Below, piece after piece: positions 1 to 3,007 of a stretch of DNA of 3,007 nucleotides. The number at the start of each line of letters is the position of its first letter. Within the stretch, counting starts at the first letter, position 1. The notes beneath the pieces were generated by a model. The model was not told the origin of the DNA, ran no database searches, and saw nothing but the letters and a program-made list of their open reading frames with translations. Source of the DNA: Naegleria gruberi (Eukaryota); NCBI GenBank assembly GCA_000004985.1, contig GG739238.1. The stretch is one strand, 5' to 3'. Both the position numbers and the translations under genes were made by a program.

Positions 1-147
1 CAAATCCAGATCAATAGCGACATTTGTAATTCCAGAATGGAGCTCCTCGATTTGGTGGCCTCTACTCTTAAAGCTATTAAAGAAGAGAAAAAGTATCACA
101 AGAAGGAGAAACGGATAGGTACATTTTGGACTGAACAAGCAAAATAA
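1..147 (+). CDS. 3' end (48 codons) of an ORF entering from upstream; unknown product with a K/E-rich tail
   Basis: Frame 1 is open from position 1 to TAA at 145-147 and reads QIQINSDICNSRMELLDLVASTLKAIKEEKKYHKKEKRIGTFWTEQAK*. No motif recognised. It could be the end of a host gene or of an upstream element ORF. Confidence 0.3.
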   Translation, partial: QIQINSDICNSRMELLDLVASTLKAIKEEKKYHKKEKRIGTFWTEQAK

Positions 148-598: not shown

Positions 599-668
599 TG
601 TATTTTGGACGACATAATGTACCTATCTGTTTCTCAAGGATGCTTTTAATCAAACCATTATCCGAATT

Positions 669-1394
669 ATGGAACAAATTCGAAGGAACGACGTTCATAA
701 TTGCTCATCTGGATGGAAACTTATACTTCAAACCAGAGATTTAGGGATGTTGGTTTCGATTAAGGAAGAAACCTTCAAACTTTACACTAGAAACTATAAT
801 GGTTTCTTATGGTTTATTACTGCATTCAATATTTCAATGGATGACACTTATGCTATTGAGTATTATGCAGCTTATCTTACAATTCAAGGTCAAACATCTC
901 GTGTTGAAGCCTTGAGACCATCCCTTCAATTTTGGGCCAATATTGAGAGAAGAGTTTTTCCAATTTCATGGTCTTATGATAAGATTAAAAGAGGAATTAT
1001 TTTTATTTGGTCCTTGATTGATAGAAAAGCTTTGAAACGTGATCCAATTTTCTATCATCATATTGAAGGTTTCATTCAGAGAAAAGATCATTATGATCCT
1101 TTCATTTTCAAACTCACTAGTGCCATGTTAGTCATTGGTTTCAGACTTTTCGCTAGACCAGGTGAATTAGCTAGACTCAAGTGGTGTTATGTTACAAAGC
1201 TTAGAAATGGTAACATCAAATTAGATCTCAGTGGTCACAAAACAGATTTCTTTCTACTAGAAAAGCCGATGACTATTGACAAGCATCTTGAAAATCCTTT
1301 AGTGTGTCCAGTGAAATTGCTTTTTGATTACATGTCTAATTCTGAGCGAAGTGAAGAATGGACTTGTTTTCATTGTAAACTTAATAAAATATAA
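669..1394 (+). CDS. Tyrosine recombinase-like protein (core-binding-like N-terminus plus first half of the catalytic domain; C-terminal HxxR / Tyr half absent). Possibly truncated or a pseudogene.
   Basis: 241-aa ORF. The frame is closed upstream by TAA at 615-617 and has A at -3 of the ATG. TYAIEYYAAYLTIQGQTSRVEALRPSLQFW resembles the YR N-terminal core-binding/SAM-like helix pattern. LVIGFRLFARPGELARLKWCYV matches box I (G-x-R-x-x-E-L-x-x-L-x-W, catalytic Arg-I). NIKLDLSGHKTDFFLLEKP fits the beta-hairpin Lys segment. CPVKLLFDY matches the CPVxALxxY(L) motif seen in phage-integrase, DIRS and Crypton YRs. The ORF ends 18 aa later (TAA 1392-1394), and the downstream frames up to 1523 contain no HxxR...Y pattern. 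Confidence 0.5.
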   Translation: MEQIRRNDVHNCSSGWKLILQTRDLGMLVSIKEETFKLYTRNYNGFLWFITAFNISMDDTYAIEYYAAYLTIQGQTSRVEALRPSLQFWANIERRVFPISWSYDKIKRGIIFIWSLIDRKALKRDPIFYHHIEGFIQRKDHYDPFIFKLTSAMLVIGFRLFARPGELARLKWCYVTKLRNGNIKLDLSGHKTDFFLLEKPMTIDKHLENPLVCPVKLLFDYMSNSERSEEWTCFHCKLNKI

Positions 1395-1429
1395 GTTGAG
1401 TATTTTTCCATGCTCAAAAAATTATCACA

Positions 1430-2518
1430 ATGGCCCCAACACCAACTACACCAAAGAACAACAAGAAAACGAAAGACCTTAGCTCACCTTCTGCAGGTAG
1501 CGAGCAACGAGTCATTGTTCTAACTCCTTCCACCTCAAATTCTTCTGATAGTTCTGCTATGCCTTCACCTCCTCCTGTTCAAGACACAAAGAAGAACAAG
1601 AAGAACAATCAACAAAAGATATCACCTGGCAAAGACTCAAACAACGCCAAGGTTGGTTCACAAGGTGCTTCTGCTCTCGCTTCTTCGATGGAATTGTTTG
1701 AGTCCAACCCATCTGAAGAGGTTTCTGGTAAAAGAGCAAGAGTTGCTGATGAACCAGATGATTGGTTTAAAAACCACGTCATCGACTCTTACCAAAGAAT
1801 GTTTGGTGAGTCATTGAAAGAAGATTTGCCGTTGGAAGAAGCTGTTTCTCTTCTATTCGAAACAGCCAATGCTCCATACGCTGACAACTTGGAATTCAAG
1901 AATAGAATGGCTGCTCTTGAATTGTTGTTCAGAAAAGAAGTAGACACTCCCATTCCAGATTCATCTGGTATAAAAGATATTAAAAGTAAAGGTTATTCTT
2001 TACTTTTAACAAACTCTTTTATCATCTCTCAAATCTGCAAGCGTTTGAGAGAGAGTGATACCCTTGATTTACCGCTTATTCTTCAAGGATTTGAATTTAT
2101 TCAGAATATTTCTGAGTTAAATCTAGTCTGTATTCGAATGGGCATTAAAAATGGCTTTGAAGCAGCTGAAAACTTCTCTAACAGCTACAAATCAGGAGGT
2201 TCACTTGACCAAATCACCTCCAAACAACAAGAGAAGGCGATTAAATCTGCTGAAAAAGTAAAAGCAGCAGAAACCATTGAAAAAGTCAGCAAATGGGCAA
2301 GCAGAACCCCTAATTTTCGTAAGTTCCCCACTAGATACGATAATAGACAAGCTGGTTACAACAACTACAACAACAACAACCACAACAACAACAACTTCAA
2401 CCAAGGACAAGGTAATAGTTACCAATCCAACAATCAAGGCTTCAGAAGATTCAACAATGCTCACCAAGCAAGTGGAACCGCTTCAAATTCCTCCAACTCA
2501 AACAACAACAATAAATGA
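1430..2518 (+). CDS. Gag-like structural protein candidate. It has a low-complexity S/P/K-rich N-terminus, a central ordered segment, a K/E-rich segment and an Asn/Gln-rich C-terminal tail. There is no CCHC zinc knuckle.
   Basis: 362-aa ORF with A at -3 of the ATG and yeast-like codon use. It lies immediately upstream of, and overlaps by 257 nt, an RT-encoding ORF in the +1 frame, which is the typical gag-pol arrangement. No recognisable catalytic or zinc-finger motif, so the gag assignment is positional. A host N-rich gene abutting the RT cannot be excluded. Confidence 0.5.
   Translation: MAPTPTTPKNNKKTKDLSSPSAGSEQRVIVLTPSTSNSSDSSAMPSPPPVQDTKKNKKNNQQKISPGKDSNNAKVGSQGASALASSMELFESNPSEEVSGKRARVADEPDDWFKNHVIDSYQRMFGESLKEDLPLEEAVSLLFETANAPYADNLEFKNRMAALELLFRKEVDTPIPDSSGIKDIKSKGYSLLLTNSFIISQICKRLRESDTLDLPLILQGFEFIQNISELNLVCIRMGIKNGFEAAENFSNSYKSGGSLDQITSKQQEKAIKSAEKVKAAETIEKVSKWASRTPNFRKFPTRYDNRQAGYNNYNNNNHNNNNFNQGQGNSYQSNNQGFRRFNNAHQASGTASNSSNSNNNNK
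2360..2401 (+). repeat. Imperfect (AAC)n trinucleotide repeat, 14 units with 3 variant units
   Basis: aac aac tac aac aac aac aac cac aac aac aac aac ttc aac encodes NNYNNNNHNNNNFN in the gag frame and poly-Thr in the pol (+1) frame. The antisense strand gives a spurious poly-Val ORF (2201-2467, minus). Confidence 0.8.
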
Positions 2519-3007
2519 TGCCAACATTCCTCTTGGTGGTCGTCTCTCTCGTTTTCACAGCCGATGGCAAGAATTCGGTGTTTCCAACACGATTCACGAT
2601 TGGATTCAAAACGGAATTCCAATAGATTCCGATTCAAATCGTTGGAAAAATTACCATCAGAGGAAATTCTCTACTACAGAGAAACAATGGATCCAAAAAG
2701 AGATTGGTTCCATGTTGAAAGAAGGAGTAATTGTTCACTCCCCAAACATCGTTATCAACCCTATAAACGTAGTTCCAAAGAAAGGGTCAGACCAATTCAG
2801 ATTCATTTTGGATCTAAGAAAGGTCAACGATGGAATAGATCCAGATTCCTTCAAAATGGAATCAGTGCAGAAAATCATGAAATTCCTATGCAAAGGAATG
2901 TGGGCATGCAAAATAGACCTAAAGAAAGGTTATTTTCACGTTCCCATCAAGGAGGAACATCAACACCTCCTAGGGTTCATATTCGAAGAAGAATTCTACC
3001 AATTTAC
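2457..3007 (+). CDS. Pol ORF, 5' partial: reverse transcriptase N-terminal region and RT domains 1-3, DIRS/Ngaro/gypsy-type. It continues beyond the window.
   Basis: Frame 0 is open from 2262 (stop TAA at 2259-2261) to the window end, with its first ATG at 2457 (A at -3). Translation: ...MLTKQVEPLQIPPTQTTTINDANIPLGGRLSRFHSRWQEFGVSNTIHDWIQNGIPIDSDSNRWKNYHQRKFSTTEKQWIQKEIGSMLKEGVIVHSPNIVINPINVVPKKGSDQFRFILDLRKVNDGIDPDSFKMESVQKIMKFLCKGMWACKIDLKKGYFHVPIKEEHQHLLGFIFEEEFYQF. Recognised motifs: GGRLxxFxxxW...W(I)xxG(I)xIxF pre-RT motif; VPKKxGxxRxIxDLRxLN (RT domains 1/2); IDLKKGYFHVPI (RT motif A with the catalytic Asp); LxFxxxxxxYQF preceding the expected LPFG. There is no protease (D-T/S-G) motif anywhere in the open frame between 2262 and the RT. 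Confidence 0.85.
   Translation, partial: MLTKQVEPLQIPPTQTTTINDANIPLGGRLSRFHSRWQEFGVSNTIHDWIQNGIPIDSDSNRWKNYHQRKFSTTEKQWIQKEIGSMLKEGVIVHSPNIVINPINVVPKKGSDQFRFILDLRKVNDGIDPDSFKMESVQKIMKFLCKGMWACKIDLKKGYFHVPIKEEHQHLLGFIFEEEFYQF

Follow-up and report, generated by a model that had tools for sequence, protein, structure and literature searches.

The window analysed here, a 3,007-nt stretch of contig GG739238.1, carries three open reading frames (ORFs) on its plus strand: ORF1 at 669–1394 (241 aa), a gag-like ORF at 1430–2518 (362 aa), and an open frame at 2262–3007, with its first ATG at 2457, that encodes a reverse transcriptase (RT). An earlier note on this DNA had read them as a single retroelement with the layout tyrosine recombinase (YR)–gag–RT. 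The three same-strand ORFs are present as claimed and all of them are genes of YR retroelements. They do not belong to one element: ORF1 is family A (98% identical to metagenome contig L007), whereas gag and RT are family B (99% to L008). We conclude that the window is very probably the meeting point of two DIRS-order (YR) retrotransposons from different families, copy A and copy B, in an N. gruberi-type genome. The parts of the two copies are as follows.

2–107, plus strand: pol of copy A (family A), C-terminal part of the methyltransferase-like domain; frame 2, ...IATFVIPEWSSSIWWPLLLKLLKKRKSITRR, broken at 105/106.
636–744, plus strand: pol of copy A, last 35 codons; frame 1, RMLLIKPLSELWNKFEG...KPEI, stop TAG at 742–744.
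669–1334, plus strand: tyrosine-recombinase remnant of copy A; N-terminal DNA-binding region and first half of the catalytic domain.
1335–1429, plus strand: left terminus and 5′ leader of copy B (family B); 94-nt leader from 1335/1336.
1430–2518, plus strand: first ORF of copy B, gag-like by position; stop TGA at 2516–2518.
2457–3007, plus strand: pol of copy B, N-terminal part; in frame 3 (+1 to the gag frame), with no stop from 2262 on and running past the window end.

The relatives compared were the metagenome contigs L001–L009, and gene order was read from L001, L003, L006, L007, L008 and L009. Positions 1–107 of the window are identical (100%) to L007 2940–3046, and positions 636–1334 match L007 3042–3731 at 98%, whereas positions 1389–3007 match L008 1–1616 at 99.1%. 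Because the matches to L007 and L008 split in this way, ORF1, together with the pol tail preceding it, was assigned to family A, and gag and RT to family B. The RTs of L007 and L008 are only ~65% identical, and the YR of L003 (P0009) is 37% identical to ORF1, whereas the L003 gag is 56% identical to the gag of the window. Homology to family A ends exactly at nucleotide 1334: across 1334/1335 the window reads GATTACATG/TCTAATTCTGAG and runs on as TCTAATTC..., while L007 goes on as GATTACATG/GACACTG.... Given this two-family breakpoint, the apparent YR–gag–RT element consists of the 3′ end of one copy joined to the 5′ end of a second. The identities of the parts, the breakpoints and the two-family origin can be read directly from these comparisons. 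Seeming YR homology past 1334 (LFSL, QKIITM) was dropped after comparison with L007 and L006.

The left terminus of family B was located independently of the breakpoint. The leader from 1336 is homologous to L006 117–212 (81%), and the L006 flank upstream of it is unrelated to that of the window, as expected of an independent insertion; homology of the leader combined with a different flank identifies 1335/1336 as the true left terminus of family B. A 39-nt core of the leader is 97% identical between the window and L006 (132–170), against only 66–74% for coding DNA. Two boxes are conserved, at 1351–1389 (GTGAAGAATGGACTTGTTTTCATTGTAAAC...) and 1410–1423 (ATGCTCAAAAAATT), with counterparts at 132–170 and 187–200 of L006, and the box ATGCTCAAAAAA(A)TT is kept in families A, B, B′ and C, 7–10 nt 5′ of the gag start codon (ATG). 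In the L007 and L009 leaders, too, these boxes are conserved far beyond coding DNA, and they are probably cis-acting. Elsewhere, at L001 3600–3740 (equal to L002 2416–2556), a YR ORF ends after HSLRIGAT and a new ORF (MSNKLAPSASVDDISDSDSS...) begins 18 nt on; this site may be a second element boundary inside a YR gene.

Copy A is a dead 3′ remnant. It is doubly inactivated, since its pol is split by an insert and its YR is cut after codon 222. The pol survives as two pieces, in frame 2 (2–107) and frame 1 (636–744), separated by the 530-nt insert. The translation of 2–107 aligns to the C-termini of the L001, L003, L006 and L007 pols, and the Pfam Dam model matches residues 499–592 of the L007 pol (E 7.8e-4). 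The start of the YR remnant overlaps the end of this pol by 76 nt. ORF1 codons 1–222 (nt 669–1334) are 96% identical to P0001 (XP_002679188.1), and their DNA is 98% identical to L007. Beyond codon 222 ORF1 does not align to complete YRs: the family A recombinase continues from codon 223 as GACACTGTACAGCATT..., and the last 20 codons of ORF1, up to 1394, are read-through into the leader of the next element.

The YR motifs reported for ORF1, the box-I Arg (ARPGE) and the Lys (GHKTD), are present and stand in columns invariant among relatives. ORF1 lacks HxxR, His/Trp and the catalytic Tyr, that is, three of the five catalytic positions, and its recombinase therefore cannot be active. No Pfam model matched ORF1 at E ≤ 10. 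The earlier note had held that the failure of ORF1 to hit any YR model would count against its reading; literally, ORF1 does match none, and its YR ancestry is nevertheless secured through complete homologues that are 96–98% identical. Complete homologues of ORF1 (297–353 aa) have the ARPGE Arg, the GHKTD Lys, the His-x-x-Arg of GHSLRIGA, the His/Trp and the Tyr, and several of them match PF00589, with P0009 scoring 28.6 bits against a cut-off of 27.1.

In copy B, the protein encoded by the gag ORF, which is intact, has Ser/Asn-rich disordered ends and an all-alpha core at about residues 112–292. Its identity to both the L008 gag and N. gruberi XP_002668143.1 is 99%, and the ORF is kept across families, always first in order. 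Its AlphaFold2 model is too poor to say more (mean predicted local distance difference test score 43, seven helices), so the label gag, which it had already been given, stands by position and family conservation only, with no Pfam match to the ORF to confirm it. The C-terminus (2340–2515) is an Asn/Gln-rich low-complexity tail derived from imperfect (AAC)n, with direct repeats at 2358–2401, and the pol frame reads a poly-Thr tract over the same interval. XP_002668143.1 and XP_002669638.1 match the gag of the window up to PTRYDN (~2343, codon ~305) and then have in common another C-terminus (LSSTVSVLPSCNKHRKFIYVFNNKS), for which none of the sequences compared has coding DNA. This points to a subfamily that was rearranged or interrupted, or to a splice model common to both.

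The pol fragment of copy B covers the RT fingers and palm to just before YIDD. Its identification as an RT held up, as did the pre-RT motif pointed out in it, which is LGGRLSRFHSRW at nt 2532–2567 (GGRL...F...W). The match to RVT_1 is partial (E 1.2e-4) and falls short of the cut-off, the domain being cut by the window end; the full pol of L008 matches RVT_1. The fragment is 75% identical to P0014 and 99.1% to L008, and it aligns with five full pols. No protease lies between gag and RT in the window, as had been noted, nor does a DDE integrase. L008, closely related to copy B, shows decay of its own (2806–2932 and 3700–3860): pol and YR have moved into one frame, and the YR ends early at ...ELTSKG, before the catalytic Tyr. 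A minus-strand ORF at 3928–4239 of L008 is apparently of host origin.

All six related contigs (L001, L003, L006, L007, L008 and L009) have the order gag–pol–YR, and the YR–gag–RT architecture is hence not that of these elements. As reconstructed from the contigs, the canonical unit of the Naegleria clade is about 4.0 kb long and comprises a leader, gag, pol with RT, RNase H and methyltransferase-like domains, YR, and a 30–55-nt trailer; units of 3980–4018 nt are wholly filled by gag, pol and YR. Intact pols measure 637–668 aa. RVT_1 matched five of five full pols (E 1e-23 to 3e-26), which have YIDD and the DAS..E..D motifs of RNase H; the Pfam match to RNase H (RVT_3) is weak in the relatives. 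PF05869 (Dam) matched four of the five at E 1.9e-5 to 7.8e-4, all under the 28.1-bit cut-off. A methyltransferase-like motif, VDRFA...NSW..DAF..YCVPP..VVPDW..W, is conserved in the pols, and nt 2–107 of the window encode its end; a sequence-profile search of the PDB with this domain gave no meaningful match (factor XIII, E 0.06). Only RVT_1, RVT_3 and Dam were found by Pfam in the five full pols, with no RVP and no rve. The features that were to be looked for 3′ of the RT are accordingly found in relatives, whose pols have RNase H and a degenerate Dam and no DDE integrase.

A profile of the five pols had the RT of Ty3 (4OL8, E 3e-27) as its best match among solved structures, in line with the affinity to gypsy already known for DIRS RTs (PMC3266345). 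An RT grouping inside Ty3/gypsy, with a protease and a DDE integrase downstream, had been named as the outcome that would speak against a YR element; the full-length relatives contain neither RVP nor rve. Among 1.8 billion representatives, the closest matches not of Naegleria type are 610–710-aa pols at 36–41% identity, several with Dam, whereas gypsy polyproteins with rve (e.g., P0036) match the Naegleria pols only at 28–32% identity. The nearest pol matches are environmental proteins.

The ends of the units were examined in L007 and L009. In L007, a 32-nt trailer separates the YR stop from a second left end, leader and gag (61–306 equals 4079–4324, 97%). The ends of L009 (1–127 and 3981–4107) overlap by exactly 127 nt, which is the k of the assembler and implies a circular or tandem unit of 3980 nt. 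In L008, the 516 nt that follow the YR contain no second leader. The L007 and L009 ends are compatible alike with head-to-tail arrays, split direct repeats and extrachromosomal circles. In both contigs, which represent two families, trailer plus leader folds as a ~100-nt imperfect hairpin (L007 4044–4145, L009 76–200) with z = −5.7; none of 200 shuffles folds as well, and the left end of the element sits near the hairpin apex. The trailer pairs with a sub-terminal segment of the leader (25 nt at 80% in L007 and 40 nt at 70% in L009), so that the right terminus is an inverted copy of that segment. Natural trailer–leader joins read ...ACATG/T (L007, L004) or ...ATATG/G (L009), and the junction in the window uses an ACATG located within the YR gene of copy A. 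When L007, L009 and a composite copy B were each compared with themselves, no internal inverted left end, the internal complementary region (ICR) of DIRS elements, came to light, although short or gapped ICRs could escape this comparison.

The proteins of the window also place its host. Codon usage had been taken to indicate a budding yeast; N. gruberi proteins are 95–99% identical to ORF1 and gag (95–96% for ORF1 with XP_002679188.1), and the other relatives come from N. fowleri and metagenomes. The GC content of the window is 36.7%, and that of N. gruberi is reported as 35% (PMC6125883). On these protein identities the host is Naegleria, an amoeboflagellate, and not a yeast. The element type is likewise on record for this genus, contrary to the suggestion of an undescribed family: seven DIRS1-like sequences were listed for N. 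gruberi and left unconfirmed as “uncertain”, being too degenerate, with frameshifts and indels (Piednoel et al. 2011, PMC3266345), and N. lovaniensis has 89 DIRS fragments making up 0.32% of its genome (Liechti et al. 2018, PMC6125883). The structure of Naegleria DIRS-order elements appears not yet to be described in the literature searched. The locus is an ordinary, partly degraded retrotransposon site, of known order and in a known host lineage. The feature bounds first proposed, 669–3007, fall short at the 5′ side, where nt 2–107 and 636–744 are the pol tail of the upstream copy. Looking up the ORFs of the window and N. gruberi gene models as exact proteins yielded no record, a metagenome scan with the YR alignment returned two contigs of ~1.7 kb each, and a k-mer-limited homology search with the RT fragment returned four matches. 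Rfam and tRNA scans across the window gave no matches.

How might copy B have come to abut copy A? Under the established DIRS model (PMC3266345), the element would be transcribed and its pol would make cDNA. The cDNA ends would then be joined, placing trailer and leader in the ~100-nt imperfect hairpin or inverted repeat, and the YR would recombine this junction with a short matching target, producing no target-site duplication. Copy B would on this scheme likely have integrated at an ...ACATG site in the YR gene of copy A (target GATTACATGGACACTG). Such an integration of copy B into copy A is the most likely origin of the boundary, with the event itself and the expression of the proteins being inferred; nested and tandem copies are common among YR elements (PMC6681497). 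Several points weigh against this account. Because the window contains neither the right end of copy B nor the remainder of the copy A YR, insertion is indistinguishable from deletion or ectopic recombination. The two other left junctions with new targets are not ACATG (...GATCG/C in L006 and ...TTGG/TG at the 5′ flank of L007), and the argument from target mimicry therefore rests on one case. The ICR is essential in the classical replication scheme of DIRS-1 (PMC7192593), and given that none was found in L007 or L009, that scheme may not apply unchanged. The Phage_integrase and Dam matches are mostly under the Pfam gathering scores, and the surrounding context is drawn solely from short metagenome contigs.

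The main alternative origin, held to be unlikely, is a deletion or an ectopic, possibly YR-mediated, recombination between neighbours in a DIRS cluster or tandem array, with loss of the 3′ third of the copy A YR and of any sequence that separated the two copies. Neighbouring copies do occur: L007 and L009 are head-to-tail relatives, XP_002669634.1 (a family A YR) and XP_002669638.1 (a family B gag) are N. gruberi scaffold-mates four gene models apart, tandem and chimeric copies are reported in other YR elements (PMC6681497), and L001/L002 have the YR ORF cut after HSLRIGAT, with a new ORF 18 nt on. The break, however, matches to the nucleotide a left terminus of copy B that was set independently in L006, which a random deletion would rarely achieve, although a site-specific event at that terminus would also match and would blur the distinction from insertion. 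An assembly chimera of reads from two repeat families seems very improbable. Both families are repeated and have close copies, and the short-read contigs L001–L009 all end near element termini; yet the two families have only ACATG in common at the join, where an assembler needs at least k identical bases, and the join coincides exactly with a terminus that is defined biologically. We give hardly any credence to a single novel element of the order YR–gag–RT with a short, 241-aa recombinase. The three ORFs do lie close together on one strand, with 36 nt between ORF1 and gag, and the numbering of Dictyostelium DIRS-1 puts the YR ORF, as ORF2, ahead of pol (PMC3266345). Such an element is contradicted by the match of ORF1 and of gag/RT to different contigs and families, by the incomplete catalytic set of ORF1 and its abrupt loss of homology at 1334, by the gag–pol–YR order of the relatives, and by the pol tail of another copy directly upstream of ORF1.

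The proposed yeast YR family with a YR–gag–RT layout fails, and at that level the locus holds no surprise. What is gained is an anatomy of Naegleria DIRS-order elements, namely their gene order, left termini, unit length, junction hairpin, leader box and complete pol/YR overlap. The window also offers a clean case of a YR element abutting another at a defined terminus, together with a miniature inverted-repeat transposable element (MITE) for which an empty site is available.

The pol/YR overlap forms part of a long second reading frame, whose start lies in the window.

2519–3007, plus strand: first part of a second, long reading frame; in frame 2, as gag, reopening right after the gag stop and overlapping pol.

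The gag stop is UGA in every family, at the same place relative to pol, within conserved Asn-Asp codons just 5′ of GGRL, and has a UGA-C context in three of four families. The gag frame is then open for 591–920 codons through pol into YR (L008 1128–2903, L001 997–3645, L003 959–3721, L006 1177–3879). Synonymous-codon shuffles of the relatives' pols predicted 28–37 stops in the overlapping frame, against none observed; the 162 codons in the window likewise have no stop, where 8.3 would be expected and no fewer than 2 occurred in any of 2000 synonymous shuffles. Identity at synonymous third positions is 0.51 for pol within the overlap, 0.52 for gag and 0.55 for YR, and so reveals no added protein-level constraint on the overlapping frame, with sites near saturation and power limited. 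A frame kept free of stops without extra conservation may suggest that ribosomes must traverse it. UGA read-through would give a Gag-X-YR fusion, with gag and a ~900-codon ORF ending in YR in one frame and pol nested at +1. Expression could alternatively proceed by reinitiation at the pol stop through a stop–start (AUGA) overlap; this feature is conserved as well, ATGA being found at the pol/YR boundary in three families. A long pol/YR overlap is a known trait of DIRS1-like elements (PMC3266345, PMC3783388). We tentatively raise the possibility, which we hold to be less than even, that the DIRS/PAT-type elements of Naegleria, a heterolobosean, form a distinct compact (~4 kb) lineage with unusual expression (UGA read-through or AUGA reinitiation) and unusual replication (a ~100-nt hairpin junction and head-to-tail or circular units in place of inverted terminal repeats (ITRs) plus an ICR). 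If read-through or reinitiation were true, it would be relevant to a question still open for the DIRS order, that of the expression of its overlapping YR ORF.

The insert that splits the pol of copy A is the remaining feature of the window.

106–635, no strand assigned: MITE-like non-autonomous element with terminal inverted repeats (TIRs), 530 nt, inside the pol of copy A.

Its TIR is GAGAAAC[G/A]GATAGGTACATT[T/A]TG, also written GAGAAACGGATAGGTACATTTTG, and the inverted repeat 106–128/613–635 spans 23 nt at 91% complementarity. The target-site duplication is AAG (103–105 and 636–638), or AAGGA by an alternative partition. L007 (3029–3050) shows the empty site CACAAGAAGGATGC, and removal of 533 nt restores a pol frame that is gapless against L001 and L003. 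The insert has a GC content of 34% and no ORF longer than 75 aa, and all five GTCCAAA/TTTGGAC motifs of the window fall within it. By its ends and its coding content, the insert is a MITE-like DNA transposon. A GT-AG intron at 119–638 was considered and rejected: a length of 520 nt does not keep the frame, and the TAG would remain. A TIR insertion was favoured, as borne out by the empty site in L007. We put down to chance a weak tblastn hit (E 0.002 in a 3-kb database, with a stop) between the N-terminus of P0001 and the MITE minus strand, and likewise a 13-nt motif, GAATGGACNTGTT, common to MITE and leader (BLAST E 0.75).

Finally, we compared the Naegleria elements with known systems, applying published definitions of the DIRS order (PMC3266345, PMC3783388, PMC6681497). 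Assignment to the YR-retrotransposon order, as first proposed, agrees with all of the above: the elements have RT and YR genes and no protease or DDE integrase, and their nearest pols are of the RT–RNase H–methyltransferase type, not gypsy. They resemble Ty3/gypsy elements in an upstream gag, a pol in the +1 frame and the Ty3 RT as best structural match, and differ from them in having no protease, rve integrase or long terminal repeats. With Ngaro-like and VIPER/TATE-like elements they share an encoded YR and the absence of protease and integrase. VIPER/TATE elements are found in Discoba (kinetoplastids), the supergroup of Naegleria. Ngaro and VIPER, however, have no methyltransferase domain and usually no ORF overlaps (PMC3266345), both of which are present in the Naegleria pols. 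By the published definitions, the Naegleria elements fall on the DIRS1/PAT side of the order, not with Ngaro/VIPER.

The PAT-like group (PAT, kangaroo, TOC), sister to the DIRS1-like elements, also has an RT–RNase H–methyltransferase pol with YR downstream of it, and the direct repeat of the L007 left end after YR and a short spacer fits the A1-...-B1-A2-B2 pattern of split direct repeats. In that pattern, B2 is not seen, as the L007 contig ends first, and A2 would reach at least 246 nt into gag; L008 has no second leader, and a plain tandem accounts for the same data. From DIRS1-like elements, exemplified by Dictyostelium DIRS-1 (PMC3266345), the Naegleria elements differ in their imperfect inverted repeats of ~25–40 nt (published range 66–316 bp), in compact (~4.0 kb), head-to-tail units with no ICR detected in L007 or L009, and in termini without the usual NTT/ATT start. 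They share with them a gag-like ORF, a pol of the RT/RNase H/degenerate Dam/PCIF1 type, a YR, and the lack of protease and DDE integrase; the long YR–pol overlap occurs in about half of the described DIRS1-like elements. The short inverted repeat that joins the right terminus to the left leader in the Naegleria elements resembles an ITR with a “left extension”. In both, the RT is nearest the Ty3/gypsy type, and copies tend to sit in or beside other copies.

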